From assembly GCF_053078305.1 (NCBI RefSeq), contig NZ_CP166879.1: a stretch of 64,000 nucleotides of DNA; one strand, written 5' to 3'. The position numbers and the translations under genes were made by a program. Shown here piece by piece: positions 5,713-48,447 of the stretch. Under the pieces are notes generated by a model. That model was not told the origin of the DNA, did not search any database, and was given only the letters and a program-made list of their open reading frames with translations. How positions within the stretch are numbered: position 1 is the first letter of the stretch; each line of letters begins with the position of its first letter.

Positions 5713-7647
5713 TTAAGACGATTTACGTACGCGCAAATACCATTCGCACAGTAAACGCACCTGTTTACGGGTGTAGCCTTTTTCCATCATACGGTCGACA
5801 AAGTCGTCGTGTTTCTTCTGCTCGTCGGTTGACGTTTTGGCGTTAAACGAGATAACCGGCAACAGCTCCTCGGTATTGGAGAACATTTTCTTCTCGATAA
5901 CCGTGCGCAGTTTTTCATAGCTGGTCCAGTTCGGATTGCGTCCGCTGTTATTGGCTCTGGCGCGCAGTACGAAGTTAACAATCTCGTTGCGGAAATCTTT
6001 TGGATTACTGATCCCCGCCGGTTTCTCGATTTTCTCCAGCTCGGCGTTAAGAGACTCGCGGTCAAACAGCTGCCCGGTATCCGGATCGCGATACTCCTGA
6101 TCCTGAATCCAGAAATCCGCGTAGGTAACATAACGGTCGAAAATGTTTTGCCCATATTCGGAATAGGATTCAAGGTAGGCCGTCTGGATCTCTTTGCCAA
6201 TAAACTCGGCATATTTCGGGATCAGATAACCTTTCAGGAACTCCAGATAGCGTTCTGCCTGCTCTTGTGGGAACTGCTCGCGCTCGATCTGCTGTTCCAG
6301 GACGTAGAACAGATGGACCGGGTTTGCCGCCACTTCTACATGATCGAAGTTGAACACGCGGGAGAGGATCTTAAACGCAAAACGCGTCGACAGACCGTTC
6401 ATCCCTTCATCGACACCGGCGTAGTCACGATATTCCTGATACGACTTGGCTTTGGGATCGGTGTCTTTCAGACTTTCGCCATCATAAACCCGCATCTTTG
6501 AATAAATGCTGGAGTTTTCTGGCTCTTTCAGGCGCGAAAGAATGGAAAAACGTGACAGTGTTTCGAGCGTGCCAGGGGCGCATGGGGCGTGAGTCAATTC
6601 ACTGTGATTAAGCAATTTCTCGTAGATTTTTATCTCTTCGGAAATGCGCAAGCAATACGGCACCTTCACGATGTAAACACGATCGAGGAAGGCTTCGTTG
6701 TTTTTGTTATTACGGAAAGTGACCCATTCGGACTCGTTCGAGTGGGCAAGAATAATCCCGTTGAACGGCAGGGCGGAGATACCTTCCGTCCCGTTGTAGT
6801 TACCTTCCTGAGTGGCGGTTAACAGCGGATGCAGCACTTTAATCGGTGCTTTAAACATCTCAACGAATTCCATGATCCCCTGGTTGGCGCGGCACAGTGC
6901 GCCGGAATAGCCATAGGCGTCTGGGTCATTCTGCGCGTAGTGTTCGAGTTTACGAATATCGACTTTCCCTACCAGCGCGGAGATGTCCTGGTTGTTCTCA
7001 TCACCGGGCTCTGTTTTGGCGATAGCAATTTGTTGCAGAATGGACGGCCAGACCTTCACTACCCGGAACTTAGTAATATCGCCACCAAATTCATGCAGAC
7101 GTTTTGCCGCCCACGGCGACATGATGGTGCCGAGATAGCGGCGAGGAATGCCATACTCTTTTTCCAGAATCTGCGCATCTTCCTGCGGATTGAAAAGACA
7201 GAACGGATGATCGTTGACCGGGCTACGCTCACCGTTGGCGCTCAATACATAAATCGGTACGAGCTGCATTAATGATTTCAGTCGCTCAGCAAGCGATGAT
7301 TTACCCCCACCCACAGGCCCCAGCAGATACAGGATTTGTTTCTTCTCTTCCAGCCCCTGAGCCGCGTGTTTCAGATAAGAGACAATCTGTTCAATCGCGT
7401 CTTCCATGCCGTAAAACTCTTCAAATGCCGGATAACGTGCAATGACCCGGTTAGAAAAGAGTCGAGAAAGTCTGGGTTCCTGGGCTGTATCGACCATGAC
7501 AGGCTCACCGATAGCCATCAATAGCCGCTCAGCCGCGTTGGCATAAGCACTGCGATCTTGCCGACAAGTGGTAAGAAACTCCTGCAGTGTGAACTCTTCG
7601 TCCTTGGCAGCTTCATATCGCTGGCGATAGTGATCGAATATATTCAT
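5713..7647 (-). CDS. yeaG: PrkA-family serine protein kinase YeaG (644 aa)
   Basis: 644-aa ORF with a Walker-A-like GPVGGGKSS motif; recognised as YeaG. Confidence 0.95.
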   Translation of the reverse strand: MNIFDHYRQRYEAAKDEEFTLQEFLTTCRQDRSAYANAAERLLMAIGEPVMVDTAQEPRLSRLFSNRVIARYPAFEEFYGMEDAIEQIVSYLKHAAQGLEEKKQILYLLGPVGGGKSSLAERLKSLMQLVPIYVLSANGERSPVNDHPFCLFNPQEDAQILEKEYGIPRRYLGTIMSPWAAKRLHEFGGDITKFRVVKVWPSILQQIAIAKTEPGDENNQDISALVGKVDIRKLEHYAQNDPDAYGYSGALCRANQGIMEFVEMFKAPIKVLHPLLTATQEGNYNGTEGISALPFNGIILAHSNESEWVTFRNNKNNEAFLDRVYIVKVPYCLRISEEIKIYEKLLNHSELTHAPCAPGTLETLSRFSILSRLKEPENSSIYSKMRVYDGESLKDTDPKAKSYQEYRDYAGVDEGMNGLSTRFAFKILSRVFNFDHVEVAANPVHLFYVLEQQIEREQFPQEQAERYLEFLKGYLIPKYAEFIGKEIQTAYLESYSEYGQNIFDRYVTYADFWIQDQEYRDPDTGQLFDRESLNAELEKIEKPAGISNPKDFRNEIVNFVLRARANNSGRNPNWTSYEKLRTVIEKKMFSNTEELLPVISFNAKTSTDEQKKHDDFVDRMMEKGYTRKQVRLLCEWYLRVRKSS

Positions 7648-11799: not shown

Positions 11800-12128
11800 C
11801 TATTTGTTAGTGAATAAAAGGTTGCCTGTAAAATTACAAAAACCTTACGCAGCGTCAAGCGGAATCGTGTCAATCATTGCGACAAATCAATCCTGTGCCT
11901 AAGCATTACGCGACTGACTCGCCTCACTCTTCCTTTGGGCTTGAGACCACATGGGGTCGGCGCCCCGAATTTTAAAGGGCAATTACGATAAAAATGTGAT
12001 TTTCATCACGATTTAGGTGCAGCCATTTCGTCGAGATCAAGTTTAGGACAAAATTTTGCCAGTTGGTGTTAATGTTTTGTTAGAATCAGTCACGTAATGT
12101 GAGCACGATTAAAGTGAGATGTGAGCAA

Positions 12129-12542
12129 ATGGCTAATAAACCTTCGGCAGAAGAACTGAAAAAAAATTTGTCCGAGATGCAGTTTTACGTGACGCAGAAT
12201 CATGGGACAGAGCCGCCATTTACGGGTCGTTTACTCCATAACAAGCGTGACGGCGTATATCACTGTTTGATCTGCGATGCCCCGCTGTTTCATTCCCAAA
12301 CCAAGTATGATTCCGGCTGTGGCTGGCCCAGTTTCTACGAACCGGTGAGTGAAGAATCCATTCGTTATATCAAAGACTTGTCACATGGAATGCAGCGCAT
12401 AGAAATTCGTTGCGGTAACTGTGATGCCCATCTGGGGCATGTCTTCCCTGACGGGCCGCAGCCAACGGGCGAACGTTATTGTGTTAACTCTGCTTCTTTA
12501 CGCTTCACTGATGGTGAAAACGGCGAAGAAATCAACGGTTGA
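12129..12542 (+). CDS. msrB: Peptide methionine-R-sulfoxide reductase MsrB (137 aa)
   Basis: Internal ATG at 12129 gives [12 protein letters not shown]... with the two CxxC zinc motifs (CLICDAP, CGNCDAH). Confidence 0.9.
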
Positions 12543-12583
12543 AAAAACGATTCAGCAACTTATTCCACAGGAGCGGAAAAATT

Positions 12584-12856
12584 ATGAATCTTGATGACAT
12601 TATCAACAGCATGACGCCTGAGGTATACCAGCGTTTGTCGACCGCTGTTGAACTGGGGAAATGGCCTGATGGCGTTGCGTTGACCGAGGAACAAAAAGAG
12701 AACTGCCTGCAACTGGTAATGCTGTGGCAAGCCCGCAATAATACCGAAGCACAGCATATGACAATTGACACAAATGGTCAGATGGTCATGAAGAGCAAAC
12801 AGCAGTTAAAAGAAGATTTTGGTATCTCAGCAAAGCCTATTGCCATGTTTAAGTAA
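12584..12856 (+). CDS. yeaC: DUF1315 protein YeaC (90 aa)
   Basis: ATG at 12584 preceded by a CAGGAG Shine-Dalgarno; MNLDDIINSMTPEVYQ... Confidence 0.8.
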   Translation: MNLDDIINSMTPEVYQRLSTAVELGKWPDGVALTEEQKENCLQLVMLWQARNNTEAQHMTIDTNGQMVMKSKQQLKEDFGISAKPIAMFK

Positions 12857-13225
12857 GTGGTTCATCCCCTTTTTGCCGCGGCTATGAAGGGGATAGCCAA
12901 CAATGACCCCACGACTCATCTCAATTATCTCGCCATGACCTGGCTAAGTCCCAGTCCGATCTCTTGCCGTCGCGTTCACGCCTGAATGACTTCTCCTGAA
13001 CTTAAGTCTCAGACCTATTTGGCCGGTAATCCCTCTCAAATTTGCTCCTTTTGCGTTCCGCCTTCCATCAACCTGTAACAGAACCAGCCATTTTTTGCGT
13101 AATTGTGATCTGAGTTGTAAAACGCAGATCATTATCTGTGTTTTACAGATTTAATGTTGACCTCAAAAATCATGTGGGTAAGTATGATGACCATCTAAGC
13201 AAAACAAAACACAGAGGATGACGCA

Positions 13226-14302
13226 ATGAAAGCACTGGCTCGGTTTGGCAAGGCCTTTGGCAGCTACAAGATGATTGATGTCCCACAACCCATGTGTGGC
13301 CCGGAAGATGTAGTGATTGAAATTAAAGCCGCGGCAATCTGCGGCGCAGACATGAAGCACTACAATGTCGATAGCGGTTCTGATGAGTTTAACTCTATCC
13401 GCGGCCATGAGTTCGCAGGTTGTATTGCGCAGGTTGGTGAAAAAGTCAAAGACTGGAAAGTGGGGCAACGCGTCGTGTCGGATAACAGCGGTCACGTTTG
13501 CGGCGTTTGTCCGGCCTGTGAACAGGGTGATTTTCTGTGTTGTACAGAAAAAGTAAACCTTGGTCTGGATAACAATACCTGGGGCGGTGGTTTTTCCAAA
13601 TATTGTCTGGTTCCTGGTGAAATTCTCAAAATTCATCGTCATGCCTTGTGGGAAATCCCTGATGGTGTTGATTATGAGGACGCAGCCGTACTTGACCCTA
13701 TCTGTAATGCCTACAAATCCATCGCGCAGCAATCGAAATTCCTTCCTGGTCAGGATGTGGTCGTCATCGGCACTGGCCCACTCGGGTTGTTCTCCGTACA
13801 AATGGCGCGGATTATGGGGGCGGTAAATATCGTCGTCGTTGGTCTGCAAGAAGATGTGGCGGTCCGCTTCCCGGTTGCAAAAGAACTGGGTGCGACGGCA
13901 GTAGTAAATGGTTCTACCGAAAATGTGGTGGCGCGCTGCCAGCAAATATGTGGCAAAGACAATCTGGGACTGGTGATTGAATGCTCCGGTGCCAATATCG
14001 CATTGAAACAAGCCATCGAAATGCTCCGCCCGAACGGGGAAGTGGTACGCGTTGGAATGGGCTTCAAACCTCTTGATTTCTCGATTAATGACATTACCGC
14101 CTGGAACAAAAGCATCATTGGGCATATGGCCTATGACTCAACCTCATGGCGTAACGCTATCAGGCTATTAGCCAGCGGCGCTATCAAAGTCAAACCGATG
14201 ATCACGCATCGTATCGGCCTGTCGCAATGGCGCGAAGGGTTTGATGCGATGGTCGATAAAACCGCAATCAAAGTGATCATGACTTACGACTTTGATGAAT
14301 AA
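13226..14302 (+). CDS. ydjL: Zn-dependent medium-chain alcohol/polyol dehydrogenase YdjL (358 aa)
   Basis: 358-aa ORF with a GHEFAG zinc-binding motif and a GTGPLG Rossmann motif. Confidence 0.9.
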   Translation: MKALARFGKAFGSYKMIDVPQPMCGPEDVVIEIKAAAICGADMKHYNVDSGSDEFNSIRGHEFAGCIAQVGEKVKDWKVGQRVVSDNSGHVCGVCPACEQGDFLCCTEKVNLGLDNNTWGGGFSKYCLVPGEILKIHRHALWEIPDGVDYEDAAVLDPICNAYKSIAQQSKFLPGQDVVVIGTGPLGLFSVQMARIMGAVNIVVVGLQEDVAVRFPVAKELGATAVVNGSTENVVARCQQICGKDNLGLVIECSGANIALKQAIEMLRPNGEVVRVGMGFKPLDFSINDITAWNKSIIGHMAYDSTSWRNAIRLLASGAIKVKPMITHRIGLSQWREGFDAMVDKTAIKVIMTYDFDE

Positions 14303-14328
14303 CAACTTTCCTGAAGGAACGTTATCGC

Positions 14329-15708
14329 ATGGAACAGATAACAAAACCGCATTGTGGTGCACGGCTGGATCGCTTACCGGATTGCCGCTGGCATTCATCA
14401 ATGTTTGCCATCGTCGCGTTTGGCTTGCTTGTCTGCTGGAGTAATGCCGTTGGTGGCTTGATCCTCGCGCAGCTGAAAGCGTTGGGCTGGACAGATAATT
14501 CCACCACAGCCACATTCTCAGCAATCACGACCGCCGGAATGTTTCTCGGTGCGCTGGTGGGCGGCATCATTGGCGACAAAACCGGTCGCAGAAATGCGTT
14601 CATCCTCTATGAGGCCATTCATATTGCCTCGATGGTTGTCGGTGCTTTCTCACCGAATATGGATTTCCTTATTGCCTGCCGTTTTGTGATGGGAGTTGGG
14701 CTGGGAGCTTTACTGGTTACGCTGTTTGCTGGTTTCACCGAATATATGCCCGGTAGAAATCGTGGAACGTGGTCAAGTCGGGTTTCCTTTATTGGCAACT
14801 GGTCATATCCGCTCTGTTCATTGATAGCGATGGGACTCACGCCGCTGATTAGTGCAGAGTGGAACTGGCGGGTACAACTGCTTATCCCTGCAATATTGTC
14901 GCTTATCGCTACGGCGCTGGCCTGGCGCTACTTTCCTGAATCCCCGCGCTGGCTGGAATCGCGCGGACGGTATCAGGAAGCCGAGAAAGTCATGCGGAGT
15001 ATAGAAGAAGGCGTCATACGCCAGACAGGTAAACCTTTGCCGCCCGTGGTTATTGCTGATGACGGTAAAGCACCACAAGCGGTGCCATATTCAGCCTTAC
15101 TGACAGGAGTATTACTGAAACGCGTGATATTAGGCTCTTGTGTGCTGATTGCCATGAACGTTGTGCAGTACACACTAATTAACTGGTTGCCAACGATATT
15201 CATGACCCAGGGGATTAATTTAAAAGACTCGATTGTTTTAAATACCATGAGTATGTTTGGCGCGCCATTTGGCATTTTTATTGCCATGCTGGTGATGGAT
15301 AAAATTCCGCGTAAAACAATGGGTGTGGGGCTATTAATCCTGATTGCGGTGCTCGGATATATCTATTCACTGCAAACCAGCATGTTGCTCATAACGTTGA
15401 TTGGTTTCTTCCTGATTACTTTCGTCTATATGTACGTTTGCTATGCCTCGGCAGTGTATGTCCCTGAGATCTGGCCGACAGAGGCCAAACTCCGTGGCTC
15501 CGGTCTGGCGAATGCGGTAGGGCGAGTCAGTGGTATTGCCGCACCTTATGCCGTTGCAGTGCTGCTCAGTAGTTATGGCGTTACGGGAGTCTTTATTCTT
15601 CTGGGGGCGGTTTCAATTATTGTCGCAATTGCTATCGCCACCATTGGAATCGAAACCAAAGGTGTCTCCGTTGAAAGTTTAAGTATTGATGCAGTAGCCA
15701 ATAAATAA
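14329..15708 (+). CDS. ydjK: MFS-family sugar transporter YdjK (459 aa)
   Basis: 459-aa polytopic membrane protein, recognised as YdjK. Confidence 0.9.
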   Translation: MEQITKPHCGARLDRLPDCRWHSSMFAIVAFGLLVCWSNAVGGLILAQLKALGWTDNSTTATFSAITTAGMFLGALVGGIIGDKTGRRNAFILYEAIHIASMVVGAFSPNMDFLIACRFVMGVGLGALLVTLFAGFTEYMPGRNRGTWSSRVSFIGNWSYPLCSLIAMGLTPLISAEWNWRVQLLIPAILSLIATALAWRYFPESPRWLESRGRYQEAEKVMRSIEEGVIRQTGKPLPPVVIADDGKAPQAVPYSALLTGVLLKRVILGSCVLIAMNVVQYTLINWLPTIFMTQGINLKDSIVLNTMSMFGAPFGIFIAMLVMDKIPRKTMGVGLLILIAVLGYIYSLQTSMLLITLIGFFLITFVYMYVCYASAVYVPEIWPTEAKLRGSGLANAVGRVSGIAAPYAVAVLLSSYGVTGVFILLGAVSIIVAIAIATIGIETKGVSVESLSIDAVANK

Positions 15709-15724
15709 TACGGGTGGATTCAAA

Positions 15725-16768
15725 ATGAAAAATTCAAAAGCAATATTGCAGGTGCCGGGCACAATGAAAATTATTTCAGCAGAAATACCAGTGCCTAAAG
15801 AAGATGAAGTTTTGATTAAAGTAGAATATGTCGGTATTTGTGGTTCAGATGTACATGGTTTTGAATCAGGTCCGTTTATTCCGCCTAAAGACCCAAATCA
15901 AGAAATTGGCCTGGGTCATGAATGCGCCGGGACGGTTGTGGCTGTGGGAAGCCGCGTGCGCAAATTTAAACCGGGGGATCGGGTAAATATCGAACCTGGC
16001 GTTCCTTGCGGTCACTGTCGTTACTGTCTGGAAGGCAAATATAACATCTGCCCGGACGTTGATTTTATGGCGACACAACCCAACTACCGCGGCGCATTAA
16101 CGCACTATCTGTGTCATCCGGAGAGCTTTACTTACAAACTGCCCGACAATATGGACACGATGGAAGGGGCGCTGGTGGAGCCTGCCGCAGTCGGGATGCA
16201 TGCCGCGATGCTGGCAGATGTTAAACCGGGTAAGAAGATAATTATTCTGGGAGCGGGTTGTATTGGTTTGATGACGTTGCAAGCGTGCAAATGCCTGGGA
16301 GCAACGGAAATTGCCGTCGTTGATGTGCTGGAAAAACGTCTGACAATGGCGGAACAGCTTGGTGCGACAGTGGTTATTAACGGCGCAAAAGAAGACACTA
16401 TTGCACGCTGTCAGCAATTTACCGAAGACATGGGCGCAGATATTGTTTTCGAAACAGCGGGTTCTGCGGTCACCGTTAAACAGGCACCTTATCTGGTAAT
16501 GCGCGGCGGTAAAATTATGATTGTTGGTACTGTACCCGGCGATTCGGCAATCAATTTCCTCAAAATCAATCGCGAAGTCACTATCCAGACGGTATTCCGC
16601 TATGCCAATCGTTATCCGGTCACGATTGAAGCTATTTCTTCAGGGCGATTCGATGTGAAATCGATGGTGACACATATTTACGATTACCGTGATGTACAAC
16701 AGGCATTTGAAGAGTCGGTTAACAACAAACGCGACATTATTAAAGGCGTTATTAAAATTAGCGATTAA
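15725..16768 (+). CDS. ydjJ: Zn-dependent alcohol dehydrogenase YdjJ (347 aa)
   Basis: 347-aa ORF with GHECAG and GAGCIG motifs. Confidence 0.9.
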   Translation: MKNSKAILQVPGTMKIISAEIPVPKEDEVLIKVEYVGICGSDVHGFESGPFIPPKDPNQEIGLGHECAGTVVAVGSRVRKFKPGDRVNIEPGVPCGHCRYCLEGKYNICPDVDFMATQPNYRGALTHYLCHPESFTYKLPDNMDTMEGALVEPAAVGMHAAMLADVKPGKKIIILGAGCIGLMTLQACKCLGATEIAVVDVLEKRLTMAEQLGATVVINGAKEDTIARCQQFTEDMGADIVFETAGSAVTVKQAPYLVMRGGKIMIVGTVPGDSAINFLKINREVTIQTVFRYANRYPVTIEAISSGRFDVKSMVTHIYDYRDVQQAFEESVNNKRDIIKGVIKISD

Positions 16769-16788
16769 TTAATACGGGAGAACAGAAC

Positions 16789-17625
16789 ATGCTCGCAGAT
16801 ATCAGATATTGGGAAAACGATGCCACAAATAAACATTATGCAATTGCCCATTTTAACGTATGGAATGCAGAAATGTTGATGGGCGTTATCGACGCAGCCG
16901 AAGAAGCGAAATCCCCGGTTATTATTTCTTTTGGTACAGGTTTTGTCGGCAACACCTCATTTGAAGATTTCTCTCACATGATGGTATCAATGGCACGAAA
17001 AGCAACTGTGCCGGTAATAACTCATTGGGATCATGGTCGGAGTATGGAGATTATTCATAACGCCTGGACTCATGGTATGAATTCATTAATGCGTGATGCT
17101 TCCGCATTTGATTTCGAAGAAAATATTCGTTTAACCAAAGAGGCTGTTGATTTCTTCCATCCGCTGGGTATTCCGGTAGAGGCGGAATTAGGGCATGTCG
17201 GTAATGAAACCGTTTATGAGGAAGCTCTGGCGGGCTATCACTATACCGATCCTGACCAGGCGGCTGAATTTGTTGAACGTACGGGCTGTGACTCATTGGC
17301 TGTCGCCATCGGCAACCAGCATGGGGTTTATACGTCAGAGCCACAATTGAACTTTGAGGTCGTCAAACGCGTACGCGATGCCGTGTCTGTTCCGCTGGTT
17401 TTGCATGGCGCATCGGGGATCAGTGATGCCGACATTAAAACTGCAATTTCGTTAGGTATCGCGAAAATCAACATCCATACGGAGCTCTGTCAGGCCGCAA
17501 TGGTCGCAGTGAAAGAAAACCAGGATCAGCCTTTCCTGCATTTAGAACGTGAAGTACGTAAAGCTGTAAAAGAACGGGCATTGGAAAAAATTAAACTGTT
17601 CGGTTCTGATGGCAAAGCGGAATAA
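16789..17625 (+). CDS. ydjI: Class II ketose-bisphosphate aldolase family protein YdjI (278 aa)
   Basis: 278-aa ORF, recognised as YdjI. Confidence 0.9.
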   Translation: MLADIRYWENDATNKHYAIAHFNVWNAEMLMGVIDAAEEAKSPVIISFGTGFVGNTSFEDFSHMMVSMARKATVPVITHWDHGRSMEIIHNAWTHGMNSLMRDASAFDFEENIRLTKEAVDFFHPLGIPVEAELGHVGNETVYEEALAGYHYTDPDQAAEFVERTGCDSLAVAIGNQHGVYTSEPQLNFEVVKRVRDAVSVPLVLHGASGISDADIKTAISLGIAKINIHTELCQAAMVAVKENQDQPFLHLEREVRKAVKERALEKIKLFGSDGKAE

Positions 17626-17629
17626 TGAT

Positions 17630-18577
17630 ATGGATAATCTCGACGTTATTTGTATAGGTGCCGCTATTGTTGATATTCCATTGCAACCGGTCAGTAAAAA
17701 TATCTTTGATGTGGATTCTTATCCTCTTGAAAGAATCGCAATGACCACCGGGGGTGATGCAATAAATGAAGCAACAATTATTTCTCGTCTGGGCCATCGT
17801 ACAGCATTAATGAGTCGTGTTGGTAAAGATGCCGCAGGACAATTTATTCTCGACCATTGCCGCAAAGAGAATATTGATATTCAAAGCCTGAAACAGGACG
17901 TCAGCATAGATACCTCTATTAACGTTGGACTGGTGACGGAGGATGGCGAGCGGACGTTTGTCACAAACCGTAACGGCAGTCTGTGGAAATTGAATATTGA
18001 CGATGTTGATTTTTCGCGGTTTTCTCAGGCGAAATTATTATCACTGGCCAGTATTTTCAACAGTCCTCTATTGGATGGTAGAGCGCTAACAGAAATTTTT
18101 ACGCAAGCTAAAGCCCGGCAGATGATTATCTGTGCCGATATGATCAAACCGCGGTTGAATGAAACGCTGGATGATATTTGCGAAGCATTGAGTTATGTCG
18201 ATTATCTGTTTCCTAATTTTGCCGAGGCAAAATTACTCACCGGGAAAGAGAGACTGGATGAAATTGCTGACTGCTTTCTTGCGTGCGGCGTAAAAACGGT
18301 GGTGATTAAAACGGGTAAAGACGGCTGCTTTATCAAGCGTGGTGACATGACGATAAAGGTGCCAGCGGTCGCAGGAATAACCGCCATCGACACCATTGGC
18401 GCGGGCGATAACTTTGCTTCAGGTTTTATTGCGGCACTGTTAGAAGGCAAAAATCTGCGTGAATGCGCACGCTTTGCCAATGCAACGGCGGCTATCTCAG
18501 TTCTAAGCGTCGGTGCCACCACCGGTGTAAAAAACAGAAAGCTGGTCGAACAATTGCTGGAAGAATACGAAGGATAA
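17630..18577 (+). CDS. ydjH: PfkB-family sugar kinase YdjH (315 aa)
   Basis: Start at the ATG at 17630 (MDNLDVICIGAA...), 4 nt after the ydjI stop; GAGD motif near the C-terminus. Confidence 0.9.
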   Translation: MDNLDVICIGAAIVDIPLQPVSKNIFDVDSYPLERIAMTTGGDAINEATIISRLGHRTALMSRVGKDAAGQFILDHCRKENIDIQSLKQDVSIDTSINVGLVTEDGERTFVTNRNGSLWKLNIDDVDFSRFSQAKLLSLASIFNSPLLDGRALTEIFTQAKARQMIICADMIKPRLNETLDDICEALSYVDYLFPNFAEAKLLTGKERLDEIADCFLACGVKTVVIKTGKDGCFIKRGDMTIKVPAVAGITAIDTIGAGDNFASGFIAALLEGKNLRECARFANATAAISVLSVGATTGVKNRKLVEQLLEEYEG

Positions 18578-18586
18578 TGAAGGCAA

Positions 18587-19567
18587 ATGAAAAAGATACC
18601 TTTAGGCACAACGGATATAACGCTTTCGCGAATGGGTTTGGGGACATGGGCCATTGGCGGCGGTCCTGCATGGAATGGCGATCTCGATCGGCAAATATGT
18701 ATTGATACGATTCTTGAAGCCCATCGTTGCGGCATTAATCTGATTGATACTGCACCAGGATATAACTTTGGCAATAGTGAAGTTATCGTCGGTCAGGCGT
18801 TAAAAAAACTGCCCCGTGAACAGGTTGTAGTAGAAACCAAATGCGGCATTGTCTGGGAACGAAAAGGAAGTTTATTCAACAAAGTTGGCGATCGGCAGTT
18901 GTATAAAAACCTTTCCCCGGAATCTATCCGCGAAGAGGTAGAAGCCAGCTTGCAACGTCTGGGTATTGATTACATCGATATCTACATGACGCACTGGCAG
19001 TCGGTGCCGCCATTTTATACGCCGATCGCTGAAACTGTCGCAGTGCTTAATGAGTTAAAGGCTGAAGGGAAAATTCGCGCTATAGGCGCTGCTAACGTCG
19101 ATGCTGACCATATCCGCGAGTATCTGCAATATGGTGAACTGGATATTATTCAGGCGAAATACAGTATCCTCGACCGGGCAATGGAAAACGAACTGCTGCC
19201 GCTATGTCGTGATAATGGCATTGTGGTTCAGGTTTATTCCCCGCTAGAGCAGGGATTGTTGACCGGCACCATCACTCGTGATTACGTTCCGGGCGGCGCT
19301 CGGGCAAATAAAGTCTGGTTCCAGCGTGAAAACATGCTGAAAGTGATTGATATGCTTGAACAGTGGCAGCCACTTTGTGCTCGTTATCAGTGCACAATTC
19401 CCACTCTGGCACTGGCGTGGATATTAAAACAGAGTGATTTAATCTCCATTCTTAGTGGGGCTACTGCACCGGAACAGGTACGCGAAAATGTCGCGGCACT
19501 GAATATCAACTTATCGGATGCAGACGCAACATTGATGAGGGAAATGGCAGAGGCCCTGGAGCGTTAA
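18587..19567 (+). CDS. ydjG: Aldo-keto reductase YdjG (326 aa)
   Basis: 326-aa ORF of the aldo-keto reductase family, recognised as YdjG. Confidence 0.9.
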   Translation: MKKIPLGTTDITLSRMGLGTWAIGGGPAWNGDLDRQICIDTILEAHRCGINLIDTAPGYNFGNSEVIVGQALKKLPREQVVVETKCGIVWERKGSLFNKVGDRQLYKNLSPESIREEVEASLQRLGIDYIDIYMTHWQSVPPFYTPIAETVAVLNELKAEGKIRAIGAANVDADHIREYLQYGELDIIQAKYSILDRAMENELLPLCRDNGIVVQVYSPLEQGLLTGTITRDYVPGGARANKVWFQRENMLKVIDMLEQWQPLCARYQCTIPTLALAWILKQSDLISILSGATAPEQVRENVAALNINLSDADATLMREMAEALER

Positions 19568-19703
19568 ATACTCAACACGATTCACCTCTGTTTCTGTGAA
19601 AACTGTGATGAAAATCTGTGATTCAAACAGGTTATTTTGAAAGTAAACATCGGTTATGCGATAATCGCGCTAATGTGATGTAAAAAGATACAGGGGTGTA
19701 ATC

Positions 19704-20462
19704 GTGGCGGCAAAAGACAGGATTCAGGCAATTAAGCAAATGGTTGCCAACGATAAAAAGGTGACAGTCTCAAATTTGAGTGGGATTTTTCAGGTAACCG
19801 AAGAAACCATTCGCCGCGATCTTGAGAAGCTGGAAGATGAAGGCTTTTTGACCAGAACCTATGGTGGTGCTGTTTTAAATACAGCGATGTTGACGGAGAA
19901 TATCCATTTTTATAAGCGCGCTTCATCGTTTTATGAAGAGAAGCAGCTTATTGCACGCAAGGCACTACCCTTTATCGACAATAAAACCACCATGGCAGCC
20001 GATTCCAGTAGTACCGTAATGGAATTGCTCAAATTGTTACAGGACCGTAGTGACCTGACGTTGCTAACCAACTCGGCGGAAGCGATTCATGTTCTGGCTC
20101 AGTCAGAAATTAAAGTCGTTTCAACGGGTGGGGAACTAAACAAAAATACACTTTCACTGCAAGGAAGAATTACTAAAGAGATCATCAGCCGCTATCATGT
20201 CGATATCATGGTAATGAGTTGTAAAGGTCTTGATATTAACAGCGGCGCGCTGGACTCTAATGAAGCGGAAGCTGAAATCAAAAAGACAATGATCCGTCAG
20301 GCGACAGAAGTTGCGTTATTGGTTGATCACTCTAAGTTTGATCGCAAAGCTTTTGTCCAGTTAGCTGACTTTAGTCATATTAATTACATAATAACTGATA
20401 AATCACCGGGTGCAGAGTGGATAGCATTTTGCAAAGACAATAATATCCAGCTGGTGTGGTAA
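19704..20462 (+). CDS. ydjF: DeoR-family transcriptional regulator YdjF (252 aa)
   Basis: GTG-initiated 252-aa ORF; an N-terminal helix-turn-helix region followed by a sugar-binding domain. Confidence 0.9.
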   Translation: MAAKDRIQAIKQMVANDKKVTVSNLSGIFQVTEETIRRDLEKLEDEGFLTRTYGGAVLNTAMLTENIHFYKRASSFYEEKQLIARKALPFIDNKTTMAADSSSTVMELLKLLQDRSDLTLLTNSAEAIHVLAQSEIKVVSTGGELNKNTLSLQGRITKEIISRYHVDIMVMSCKGLDINSGALDSNEAEAEIKKTMIRQATEVALLVDHSKFDRKAFVQLADFSHINYIITDKSPGAEWIAFCKDNNIQLVW

Positions 20463-20579
20463 TTTAAGCACACGTTGTCAATATTATTTGTTCCTGCGCC
20501 TGGAAATAAAATGATGATAAAGATGCGGCAAGTGAATTTGCCGCAATTGCTACCTTTTTTAGCAAATCCGAGGCACCCA

Positions 20580-21938
20580 ATGGAACAATATGATCAAATT
20601 GGCGCAAGACTGGACCGCTTGCCTTTGGCCCGGTTTCATTATCGTATATTTGGTATTATAAGCTTTAGTCTGTTATTAACAGGGTTTTTGAGTTACTCCG
20701 GTAATGTCGTCTTAGCAAAGCTGGTAAGCAATGGATGGTCAAATAATTTCCTCAATGCCGCCTTTACCTCGGCATTAATGTTTGGTTATTTCATCGGCTC
20801 TCTTACCGGTGGGTTCATCGGTGATTACTTTGGGCGGCGCAGGGCGTTTCGCATAAATCTTCTCATCGTCGGTATTGCTGCAACAGGGGCCACTTTTGTC
20901 CCTGATATGTACTGGCTCATCTTCTTTCGCTTCCTGATGGGAACAGGAATGGGTGCGCTGATTATGGTTGGCTATGCCTCATTTACGGAGTTTATCCCCG
21001 CGACGGTGCGTGGAAAATGGTCCGCGCGGCTCTCATTTGTTGGTAACTGGTCGCCCATGCTGTCTGCGGCGATAGGTGTGGTGGTTATCGCTTTTTTTAG
21101 TTGGCGGATAATGTTTCTGCTGGGTGGTATTGGCATACTGTTAGCCTGGTTTCTTTCAGGTAAATACTTTATTGAGTCGCCACGATGGCTGGCAGGGAAA
21201 GGGCAAATCGCAGGTGCAGAAAGCCAACTTCGTGAAGTAGAGCAGCAAATTGAAAGAGAGAAGAGTATTCGTTTACCCCCGCTTACTTCGTATCAGAGCA
21301 ACAGCAAGGTTAAAGTAATCAAGGGTACTTTCTGGCTCCTGTTTAAAGGTGAAATGTTACGACGTACATTAGTCGCGATTACTGTTTTAATTGCAATGAA
21401 CATTTCGCTTTATACCATCACCGTATGGATACCGACCATATTTGTTAACTCCGGCATTGATGTCGATAAATCAATATTAATGACCGCTGTTATTATGATT
21501 GGCGCTCCGGTAGGAATATTTATTGCGGCATTAATTATTGATCATTTTCCTCGTCGGTTATTTGGCTCCACCTTACTTATTATTATTGCCGTGTTAGGCT
21601 ATATCTATTCAATTCAGACTACAGAGTGGGCGATTTTAATCTATGGCCTGGTGATGATCTTCTTTTTATACATGTATGTTTGCTTCGCGTCGGCGGTTTA
21701 TATCCCGGAGCTTTGGCCAACGCATTTACGCCTGCGCGGTTCGGGTTTCGTTAATGCCGTCGGACGGATCGTCGCAGTCTTCACGCCCTATGGCGTTGCG
21801 GCATTATTAACACATTATGGGTCGATCACGGTGTTTATGGTACTTGGTGTCATGTTATTGCTCTGTGCGCTGGTTCTCTCCATTTTTGGCATCGAAACGC
21901 GGAAGGTGTCGTTGGAAGAGATTTCTGAGGTGAATTAA
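20580..21938 (+). CDS. ydjE: MFS-family transporter YdjE (452 aa)
   Basis: Track ORF 20475..21938; start chosen at the ATG at 20580 (MEQYDQIGARLDRLP...) to give 452 aa. Confidence 0.85.
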   Translation: MEQYDQIGARLDRLPLARFHYRIFGIISFSLLLTGFLSYSGNVVLAKLVSNGWSNNFLNAAFTSALMFGYFIGSLTGGFIGDYFGRRRAFRINLLIVGIAATGATFVPDMYWLIFFRFLMGTGMGALIMVGYASFTEFIPATVRGKWSARLSFVGNWSPMLSAAIGVVVIAFFSWRIMFLLGGIGILLAWFLSGKYFIESPRWLAGKGQIAGAESQLREVEQQIEREKSIRLPPLTSYQSNSKVKVIKGTFWLLFKGEMLRRTLVAITVLIAMNISLYTITVWIPTIFVNSGIDVDKSILMTAVIMIGAPVGIFIAALIIDHFPRRLFGSTLLIIIAVLGYIYSIQTTEWAILIYGLVMIFFLYMYVCFASAVYIPELWPTHLRLRGSGFVNAVGRIVAVFTPYGVAALLTHYGSITVFMVLGVMLLLCALVLSIFGIETRKVSLEEISEVN

Positions 21939-21990
21939 ATCTTTCGTTGATGGCATCAATTGCCAGATGTGCCACTGACGTGTTTTATTT

Positions 21991-22021
21991 GGCCTACAAT
22001 GCCAGTACAGAATTGTAGGCC
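21991..22021. terminator. Hairpin between the convergent ydjE and pncA genes
   Basis: Perfect 10-bp inverted repeat GGCCTACAAT ... ATTGTAGGCC with an 11-nt loop, lying between the two stop codons. Confidence 0.45.
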
Positions 22022-22030
22022 AGCGTAAAA

Positions 22031-41974: not shown

Positions 41975-42214
41975 AGTCGCTGCCATTTATTCAGATAAAG
42001 AGTGCGTGGATGGTAGCAGAATTTCGCTTTGCTTACCGCCTGTTGTTAAGTGATTTGATCGATGGTTGTTAATGATGTCAACGATGGAGCAAAAAATGCC
42101 CGCTGTTGGTGCGCGCTGCGTCAGAATGGCGCAGTAATTTCCAGTAAATTTCGTCAATGATCACAATTCCAGAATTATATTTTACTTCTGCATAACATTG
42201 CGTTTTTTATTCTT

Positions 42215-42290
42215 TTTATTCACCCACATCGCAAACGTATTCACTTAATATGCACTTTAAATGCATATGGTTTGGTTATAACTCCTTGAT
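42215..42290 (+). promoter_or_regulatory. AT-rich upstream activator region of astC with ARG-box-like and NtrC-like palindromic motifs
   Basis: Motifs cgtATTCActtaatATGCActttaaaTGCATat lie upstream of the sigma-54 promoter. Assignment rests on established ast-operon regulation; exact site boundaries are not resolved. Confidence 0.35.
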
Positions 42291-42331
42291 TTCCAATTAG
42301 CCTCCGCCGTTTATGCACTTTTATCACTGGC

Positions 42332-42347
42332 TGGCACGAACCCTGCA
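42332..42347 (+). promoter_or_regulatory. Sigma-54 (-24/-12) promoter of the ast operon
   Basis: TGGCAC-N5-CTGCA at 42332..42347, about 73 nt upstream of the astC ATG; matches the GG-N10-GC spacing of the sigma-54 consensus. Confidence 0.6.
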
Positions 42348-42383
42348 ATCTACATTTACAGCGAAAACATTACTTATTATTAA

Positions 42384-48447
<6,064 letters not shown>

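Follow-up and report, generated by a model that had tools for sequence, protein, structure and literature searches.

The closest described parallels to the control region considered here are promoters at which a specific regulator and CRP act on the same DNA, and promoters whose operators extend into the first gene. GlpR recognizes the half-site WATGTTCGWT. Looping operators inside the first structural gene are exemplified by lacO2 at +401, by the GlpR operators in glpD and by the DeoR operators O1/O2/OE. In glpFK, the GlpR operators O1-O4 overlap two CRP sites and the promoter is CRP-dependent (PMC4117983). The region upstream of ydjL resembles glpFK in that a regulator of the DeoR/GlpR family accompanies a catabolic operon, tandem operators lie about two helical turns apart before the promoter, and CRP overlaps them. 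It differs in its half-site, AATCTGTG at ydjL versus WATGTTCGWT for GlpR, and in having two predicted dyads and one asymmetric CRP site, whereas at glpFK four operators have been footprinted and CRP has two sites. The likeness to lacO2, glpD and the DeoR operators lies in a copy of the promoter-proximal operator about 400 bp downstream in the ydjL coding sequence, with a spacing kept at 397-401 bp in 23/25 sequences; at ydjL, however, both looping and binding are predictions from sequence. At deoP2 and related promoters, CytR is likewise a specific repressor that lies over or between CRP sites and blocks CRP activation of a weak promoter. CytR, however, belongs to the LacI family and needs protein-protein contact with two flanking CRP dimers. 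ydjL has one CRP site, and the overlap of operator and CRP site there suggests simple competition.

The ydj cluster is among the better-studied "orphan" sugar pathways of Escherichia coli K-12, and several of its enzymes are active in vitro on unnatural substrates. The ydjL promoter was reported to be inactive in culture but active in the mouse gut (PMC6561318), the behavior expected of an inducible promoter. In this study, we analyzed the spacer between yeaC and ydjL in a window of 64 kb (the whole stretch of DNA under analysis). We consider it probable that YdjF operators, two adjacent dyads termed A and B, together with an overlapping CRP site, control a ydjL sigma-70 promoter whose -35 is good and whose -10 is weak.

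Results

The window is an E. coli-type chromosome in the orientation opposite to K-12 (MG1655 position = 1874558 - p, where p is the window position). The gene order is gapA (minus strand), msrB, yeaC, ydjL, ydjK, J, I, H, G, ydjF and ydjE. The window sequence at 13096-13189 is identical in K-12, so the K-12 literature is applicable to it. Orthologues of ydjL were taken from one genome per species and the cluster was mapped in each. The eight-gene cluster is syntenic, following msrB-yeaC, in Escherichia, Citrobacter, the Klebsiella oxytoca group, Raoultella, Yokenella and others, and it occupies other gene contexts in Budvicia, Symbiopectobacterium, Enterobacillus and Serratia. In Citrobacter and Klebsiella, a YajD-like HNH gene and a GH18 chitinase gene lie between yeaC and ydjL. 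The idea that 12857-13099 is a remnant of the HNH/GH18 genes was rejected, as blastn (word size 7) found no similarity.

Among 25 Enterobacterales sequences from Escherichia to Serratia, the conserved part of the 369-nt spacer is restricted to its last 126 bp (13100-13225). In every genus, similarity to the window spacer begins sharply at about 13100 and reaches the ydjL start codon; positions 13039-13099 are common to Escherichia only, and 12857-13038 to E. coli only. What an earlier, sequence-only reading had described as a 370-bp untranslated region upstream of ydjL is thus an intergenic spacer and not one leader, since only 13100-13225 is conserved beyond Escherichia. If transcription begins at the conserved promoter, the predicted leader measures about 35 nt. 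We regard 13100-13225 as the stretch that probably controls the ydjLKJIHG operon of this sugar-acid catabolic cluster, and the first 240 bp of the spacer as a separate unit. The features are listed in Table 1.

Table 1. Positions of genes and sequence features in the window
Feature	Position	Strand	Description
yeaC	12584-12856
yeaC 3' stem-loop	12858..12903	+	arms ATCCCCTT (12864-12871) and AAGGGGAT (12887-12894); without U-tract
C-rich, G-poor spacer	12904..13099	+	rut-like region, poorly conserved
CRP-like site	13101-13122		AAT TGTGA TCTGAG TTGTA AAA; core TGTGAtctgagTTGTA (13104-13119), centre 13111.5
Conserved block TTGTGATCT	13103-13111		TGTGA invariant in the 25-sequence alignment
Conserved block GTTGTGAAAT.CAGATC			Enterobacteriaceae only (25-sequence alignment)
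Dyad B	13112-13130		GAGTTGTA-AAA-CGCAGATC, centre 13121; overlaps the CRP-like site by 11 bp
Large palindrome	13116-13129 and 13134-13147 (arms)		14-nt arms, 13/14 complementary, 4-nt gap, centre 13131.5
Dyad A	13133-13151		TATCTGTG-TTT-TACAGATT, centre 13142; ends 5 bp before the -35
Conserved block (A)ATCTGTGTTT(T/C)A(A/C)AGATTT	13134-13152		in all 25 sequences aligned
Sigma-70-type promoter	13157..13185	+	-35 TTGACC (13157-13162), 17-nt spacer, weak -10 AAGTAT (13180-13185)
Other conserved blocks (25-sequence alignment)			-35 TTGAC(C); weak -10 AAGTAT or AATTAT after 17 nt; ribosome-binding region
ydjL ribosome-binding region	13206..13228	+	AAAACACAGAGGATGACGCA-ATG
ydjL	13226-14302
Internal dyad	13532-13550		TTTCTGTG-TTG-TACAGAAA, centre 13541; within the ydjL reading frame
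ydjF promoter region	19585..19642	+	ACCTCTGTTTCTGTG (19585-19599); AAATCTGTGATTC from 19612; -35 TTGAAA (19637-19642)
ydjF	19704-20462

The extended imperfect palindrome noticed earlier in the spacer is present, as AAAACGCAGAT-catt-ATCTGTGTTTT at 13119-13144. When the 369-nt spacer was shuffled 1000 times with its dinucleotides preserved, an inverted repeat as good (14 nt or more per arm, no more than 1 mismatch, up to 12 nt between the arms) turned up in 2 of the shuffles. Together with the sharp phylogenetic footprint across genera, and with the recurrence of the box at the ydjF promoter (PydjF) and inside ydjL, where it lies under the strongest synonymous constraint of the cluster, this makes it hardly credible that the palindromes are functionless chance products of A/T-rich intergenic DNA. 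That view can draw on the chance frequency of TGATCTG and of the CRP core, and on SNPs within the dyads of some E. coli strains.

The palindrome had been proposed to be the operator of a dimeric regulator. A conserved regulatory block before a conserved sigma-70-type promoter is indeed found, but the large palindrome is not the symmetry unit of this block. We assign that role to two adjacent 19-bp dyads of the form AATCTGTG-N3-CACAGATT. When the window was scored against this consensus (maximum 16), dyad A was the best match in the 64 kb, with 14/16. It is kept in 25/25 Enterobacterales sequences, and in Serratia and Enterobacillus the same position holds a perfect 21-bp palindrome, AAATCTGTG-TTT-CACAGATTT, that scores 16/16. 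SNPs lie inside dyad A in several of the 10 E. coli strains compared. Judged by its sequence, dyad A is the main candidate for a YdjF operator. Dyad B is a degenerate mirror copy of dyad A, with its centre 21 bp (two helical turns) upstream; its score is weak (10/16 in the window, 11/16 in other genera), and its core, compared on the minus strand, differs from that of dyad A at 3 positions. Dyad B is kept in Enterobacteriaceae and absent in Serratia, Enterobacillus and Symbiopectobacterium. Sites that match the dyad A core with no more than 3 mismatches, dyad B and the internal site in ydjL among them, numbered 5 against 1.3 expected, and none of 100 shuffles reached 5.

Because the two dyads are mirror images with A/T centres, a larger palindrome arises at their junction, composed of the right half of dyad B, the left half of dyad A and their A/T centres. 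The "nested palindromes" are dyads A and B side by side. Outside Escherichia, the large palindrome has 3-4 non-Watson-Crick positions, and several of its "pairs" are G-T in most genera. Across genera, its sequence is kept and not its pairing. The overlapping TGATCTG (13106-13112) and CAGATCA (13125-13131) do stand 12 nt apart, as had been pointed out, but they do not form a unit of their own: the arrangement pairs the flank of a CRP half-site with the right half of dyad B. TGATCTG alone occurs at chance frequency (8 found, 7.2 expected). What raises this element and the CRP core above chance is their conservation across species, not the match itself.

It was also considered whether the palindrome acts as RNA, with a hairpin at 13115-13148 of read-through transcripts serving as terminator or attenuator, or with 13129-13144 pairing to the ydjL ribosome-binding site at 13206-21 and silencing translation. 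The single strand of 13112-13152 has a predicted folding energy of -17.4 kcal/mol (z = -6.5), and ATTTAATGTT comes directly after the hairpin. The segments 13129-13144 and 13206-13221 are reverse complements in 14/16 positions. The same pattern is seen at the ydjF promoter, where ACCTCTGTTTC faces GAAACAGAGGT at the ribosome-binding site, and read-through RNA exists, which Rho ends inside ydjL. The complementarity of 13206-13221 could reflect either a third half-site, CACAGAGG, or base-pairing within read-through RNA by which the ribosome-binding site is masked. However, no RNA end was mapped to the hairpin by Term-seq, the sole 3' end in the spacer being at 12903. Pair counts across genera revealed no covariation above shuffles, either in the large hairpin or in the two dyads; for the large hairpin, between 364 and 462 of 500 shuffles did as well, according to the measure used. 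Conservation of the block is just as strong in Citrobacter and Klebsiella, in which the upstream gene is divergent and read-through is impossible, and the same sequence stands at untranscribed positions in other phyla. Moreover, the hairpin is absent from the operon's own mRNA because it lies upstream of the conserved promoter. A permissive Rfam scan of 12000-14000 returned only chance-level snoRNA and lncRNA matches (E > 4), so no known RNA family is present there. On this evidence, a function as RNA is improbable, and we continue to favor operators for a DNA-binding regulator.

A CRP-like site had also been suspected at this location. The ydjLKJIHG operon is a direct CRP target according to the study by Li et al. 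(PMC8085971), in which CRP-cAMP shifted the promoter fragment in EMSA and crp-deletion data showed crp-dependent expression. This evidence and the invariance of TGTGA in 25/25 Enterobacterales support the site, but its right half is poor. The left half agrees with the CRP consensus in 5/5 positions, or in 10/11 when the flanks are counted, while the right half agrees with TGTGA-N6-TCACA in 2/5 positions in the window and in 1/5 in other genera. TGTGATCT is nearly invariant, and the spacing TGTGATCT-N22-ATCTGTG is exactly kept from E. coli to Serratia and Enterobacillus. Pattern alone was discarded as evidence for the site, since matches to the CRP core with up to 3 mismatches occur at chance frequency (220 found, 222 expected). 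The centre of the site lies at about -80.5 from the predicted start (~13192); productive distances are near -41.5, -61.5, -71.5, -82.5 and -92.5.

One might ask whether CRP alone accounts for the region, the TGTG/CACA and CAGAT/ATCTG elements being poor tandem CRP sites with no specific regulator. The invariant TGTGA, the binding of the promoter fragment by CRP in vitro reported in PMC8085971, and a TGTG...CACA within dyad A of Serratia all fit such a reading. The spacing within the dyads (TGTG-N3-CACA), however, is far from the TGTGA-N6-TCACA of CRP, and neither the internal site nor the PydjF box has a CRP-like arrangement. The same dyads occur in Firmicutes and in an Atopobiaceae genome; Firmicutes are not known to possess CRP. 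Control by CRP alone is therefore very unlikely, and YdjF operators overlapped by a CRP site remain our preferred reading.

The plausible sigma-70 promoter that had been placed just downstream of the palindrome was borne out by the conservation of its -35, TTGACC, across genera. TTGA is invariant in the 25 sequences and TTGAC is found in 24/25, Budvicia having TTGAT. The -10 reads TAAGTAT or AATTAT and is likewise conserved, with its distance to the -35 unchanged. From this sequence, transcription is predicted to start near 13192; the only transcription start used in the literature sits inside yeaC. Two promoters proposed by a scan tool, TTTACA-17-AAAAAT (plus strand) and TCAACA-18-GATAAT (minus strand), were rejected since they are not conserved across genera, and the conserved TTGAC(C) was preferred as the -35 for that reason.

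A further dyad lies within ydjL, 399 bp downstream of dyad A. Its core, TCTGTGTTgTACAGA, is identical to the dyad A core in 14/15 positions. In 24 Enterobacterales it is nearly invariant, including synonymous positions, whereas neighboring codons vary; this conservation does not extend to Firmicutes. In a sliding-window scan of synonymous diversity over all eight genes in 23 sequences, the internal dyad had the lowest value, ranking first of 2731 windows from ydjL to ydjE (0.064; mean over all windows, 0.426). Dyad A was located correctly in 23/25 sequences, in which 397-401 bp separate it from the internal dyad; in the other two, the pattern search mislocated dyad A. The internal dyad could also be an RNA hairpin instead of an operator. 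A second palindrome in ydjL, AATCTGCGGCGCAGACATG at 13336-13354 (12/16), was rejected because its synonymous positions vary freely; its recurrence in Firmicutes is due solely to conservation of the protein.

The suggestion that a DeoR-type regulator is encoded in the cluster was confirmed by the domains of YdjF, HTH_DeoR (PF08220, 2.9e-17) and DeoRC (PF00455, 2.4e-49). YdjF is the only regulator in the cluster and travels with it in Proteobacteria, Firmicutes and Atopobiaceae. In the literature searched, YdjF is listed as an uncharacterized regulator, and no binding or ChIP-exo data for it were found. The helix-turn-helix of YdjF is highly conserved across phyla, which says little on operator specificity because the motif is family-wide.

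In the ydjG-ydjF spacer, the blocks ACCTCTGTTTCTGTG and AAATCTGTGATTCAGACATG are conserved among the 23 sequences aligned. ATCTGTG begins 23 nt before the -35 both at the ydjL promoter (PydjL; 13134 to 13157) and at PydjF (19614 to 19637), and similar boxes stand 23-24 nt before the -35 in homologous clusters of some Firmicutes and of an Atopobiaceae genome. In the GC-rich Atopobiaceae locus L039 (19 kb), only two sites score 11/16 or more; they stand in tandem, 20 bp from each other, immediately before the ydjL homologue. Tandem boxes like these, 23-24 nt before the -35, are also found in L026, L027 and L040. The boxes are clear in about 4 of 12 non-redundant Firmicute and Atopobiaceae loci, the others being too A-rich to judge. 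A k-mer enrichment test on the Firmicute upstream regions was uninformative because the signal was swamped by their A-rich composition.

As is found in DeoR/GlpR operator arrays, the locus has a linked DeoR-family regulator, a box at more than one promoter, including the regulator's own, and box conservation exceeding that of the flanking non-coding DNA. On sequence grounds, the dyads are most likely operators of the DeoR/GlpR-type YdjF that overlap a CRP site.

The operators lie upstream of the -35 at a distance fixed across phyla, a geometry that also suits an activator and that weighs against our explanation. The dyads may be real while YdjF is an activator, like FucR of the same family, or while another regulator binds them and the box recruits RNA polymerase. 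We consider this unlikely, yet it is the main rival because the distance from box to -35 is so strictly kept (23-24 nt, at two promoters and across phyla). A site centre at about -50, upstream of the core promoter, and the weak -10 of PydjL would also fit an activator. On the other hand, the -35 and -10 of Firmicutes are near-consensus and should need no activator, and TTGAAA-17-GATAAT is catalogued as the constitutive RpoD promoter of ydjF, recognized by RNA polymerase alone (PMC3946193). In addition, no second regulator travels with the cluster, and tandem sites with a distant internal site are typical of DeoR/GlpR-type repressors. Repression by YdjF thus remains the explanation that we prefer.

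Discussion

In the mechanism that we propose, YdjF would occupy dyads A and B when inducer is absent, and probably also the internal dyad 399 bp downstream by means of DNA looping. This occupancy would exclude CRP and the alpha subunit of RNA polymerase from the DNA upstream of the -35, and the weak ydjL promoter would therefore stay off. An inducer, probably a phosphorylated intermediate of the pathway, would release YdjF, and cAMP-CRP could then activate transcription. In this scheme we infer the binding of YdjF, repression rather than activation, looping and the transcription start.

A broader proposal may be put forward more tentatively, as one that we judge slightly less likely to be right than wrong. 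YdjF may recognize the 19-bp AATCTGTG-N3-CACAGATT dyad, and this dyad may have moved together with the ydj cluster among Proteobacteria, Firmicutes and Actinobacteria. YdjF of Enterobacterales may repress through a loop of about 400 bp that joins the promoter dyads to the operator inside ydjL, with frozen synonymous sites as its cost.

The kind of system described here is well known, and CRP control of the ydjL promoter has already been published. The general understanding of bacterial gene regulation is unchanged because the logic is that of glpFK. The literature searched contained no YdjF operator, no reading of the palindrome as two dyads and no mention of the constrained internal dyad. If true, the broader proposal would define for the first time the operator and regulon of this orphan E. 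coli regulator, and reporters built on it could lead to the natural substrate of the ydj pathway. The defined architecture offers a concrete test of YdjF binding and an inducer screen based on the release of YdjF from the dyads, and it could account for the dependence of the promoter on CRP as well as on a gut signal. The internal operator, still a candidate, would be a clean example of a regulatory site that constrains synonymous codons.

The first part of the spacer appears to belong to the 3' end of yeaC. The hairpin lacking a T-tract that had been noted directly after the yeaC stop (12856) is corroborated by its fold (-21.1 kcal/mol, z = -3.6) and by a coincident mapped RNA 3' end. The primary yeaC 3' end determined by Term-seq is at MG1655 1861655(-), which is window position 12903, in two data sets of Adams et al.; it lies 9 nt past the hairpin. 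The hairpin was not classed as an intrinsic terminator, since AGCCAACAATGACCCC follows it in place of a U-run and the terminator scan did not call it. It may nevertheless terminate transcription intrinsically in a non-canonical way.

The stretch that follows the hairpin, 12904-13099, contains 34% C and 16% G; with a C/G ratio of 2.06, it is more strongly skewed toward C over G than any other 196 nt in the 64-kb window. Its SNP density is the highest in E. coli (0.128 per site, 10 strains), and no homology to it was found outside Escherichia. Adams et al. reported a bicyclomycin-sensitive Rho termination region at MG1655 1861188, which corresponds to window position 13370, 144 nt into ydjL, and a more than 2-fold increase of a ydjL fusion in rhoR66S. 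The locus therefore presents the C-rich, G-poor untranslated RNA before bicyclomycin- and rho-sensitive ends that is characteristic of Rho-dependent termination, and 12904-13099 looks like a Rho loading (rut) region for yeaC read-through. Read-through RNA from yeaC would be untranslated across the spacer; Rho would load on the C-rich stretch and terminate transcription within ydjL. The simplest reading is that the terminated RNA would then be trimmed back to the protective 3' hairpin. In this respect yeaC resembles Rho-terminated mRNAs with stem-loop-protected 3' ends, which likewise combine a stable hairpin without a U-tract at a strong 3' end with a C-rich, G-poor stretch and a bicyclomycin-sensitive region downstream; it differs in that the trimming at the yeaC hairpin is a step that we only infer. 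Among the 10 E. coli strains, the SNPs in the yeaC hairpin keep its pairing, changing A-U to G-U and G-U to A-U.

Results and Discussion

The ydj genes encode a sugar-acid catabolic cluster whose distribution extends well beyond E. coli. YdjL of E. coli shares 76-84% identity with its counterparts in Lachnospiraceae, Eubacteriaceae, Enterococcus, Anaerococcus, Megamonas and Atopobiaceae (comparison loci L025-L048), and the gene order of most of the cluster is syntenic between E. coli and these loci. Together, this identity and synteny point to the pathway as a whole having moved recently among gut bacteria of different phyla. Within E. coli, the ydjLKJIHGFE block is absent, together with the 370-bp spacer between yeaC and ydjL (12857-22030 of the window), from about 1100 of the 5425 complete genomes. 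In genomes lacking the block (loci L002 and L003), yeaC and pncA are 160 bp apart, the junction contains about 100 bp of unrelated DNA, and the breakpoint lies exactly at the yeaC stop codon. In Citrobacter and the Klebsiella oxytoca group, yeaC is separated from ydjL by two additional genes (Table), and the ydjL control region is a divergent intergenic region.

In front of both ydjL and ydjF stands a conserved box that reads as the reverse complement of the ribosome-binding region of the respective gene. This complement could represent an additional operator half-site downstream of the transcription start. The same complementarity could also be read at the RNA level, as anti-Shine-Dalgarno pairing that silences read-through RNA. 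Dyad A, the main candidate operator for the regulator YdjF upstream of ydjL, carries internal changes in some E. coli strains. In strain OkiPb01699 (L061; window positions 13130 and 13148-13149), TACAGATT is replaced by TACATGTT, a sequence similar to GACATGTT, which forms the right half of the box at the ydjF promoter. The dyad A core is matched at two more places in the window, neither of which was prominent in the synonymous-constraint scan (sliding windows over ydjL-ydjE; 23 sequences, 2731 windows).

Table. Coordinates of features in the window and in comparison loci
Feature	Position	Strand	Remarks
YajD-like HNH protein gene and GH18 chitinase gene	L007 6963-9001; L014 6913-9001	minus	between yeaC and ydjL
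ydjL box and ribosome-binding region	13129-13144 vs 13206-13221		reverse complement, 14/16
ydjF box and ribosome-binding region	19585-19595 vs about 19688-19700		ACCTCTGTTTC against GAAACAGAGGT
Dyad A core match	18524-18538	minus	3 mismatches; inside ydjH
Dyad A core match	6458-6472		3 mismatches; outside the ydj cluster
Hairpin with T-run	20511-20579		GCGGCAAGTGAATTTGCCGC then ...CCTTTTTT; between ydjF and ydjE

The hairpin between ydjF and ydjE coincides in position with a Term-seq 3' end (MG1655 1854008), which makes separate transcription of ydjE and ydjF probable. At the other end of the cluster, the 'ydjL 5' UTR' of Adams et al. was cloned from a start inside yeaC, with a primer that begins at 12749, and an AATAAT hexamer resembling a -10 element lies upstream of this position. 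Given the strong 3' end at 12903, transcription from such a start would produce a putative short RNA, about 155 nt long, derived from the 3' end of yeaC (12749-12903).

In the divergent gapA-msrB spacer, TGTGATTTTCATCACG (11995-12010) matches the CRP core with one mismatch and is much nearer to the CRP consensus than the CRP-like site of ydjL. Elsewhere in the window, a C-over-G skew near that of the C-rich part of the yeaC-ydjL spacer (12904-13099) occurs only at 42161-42410.
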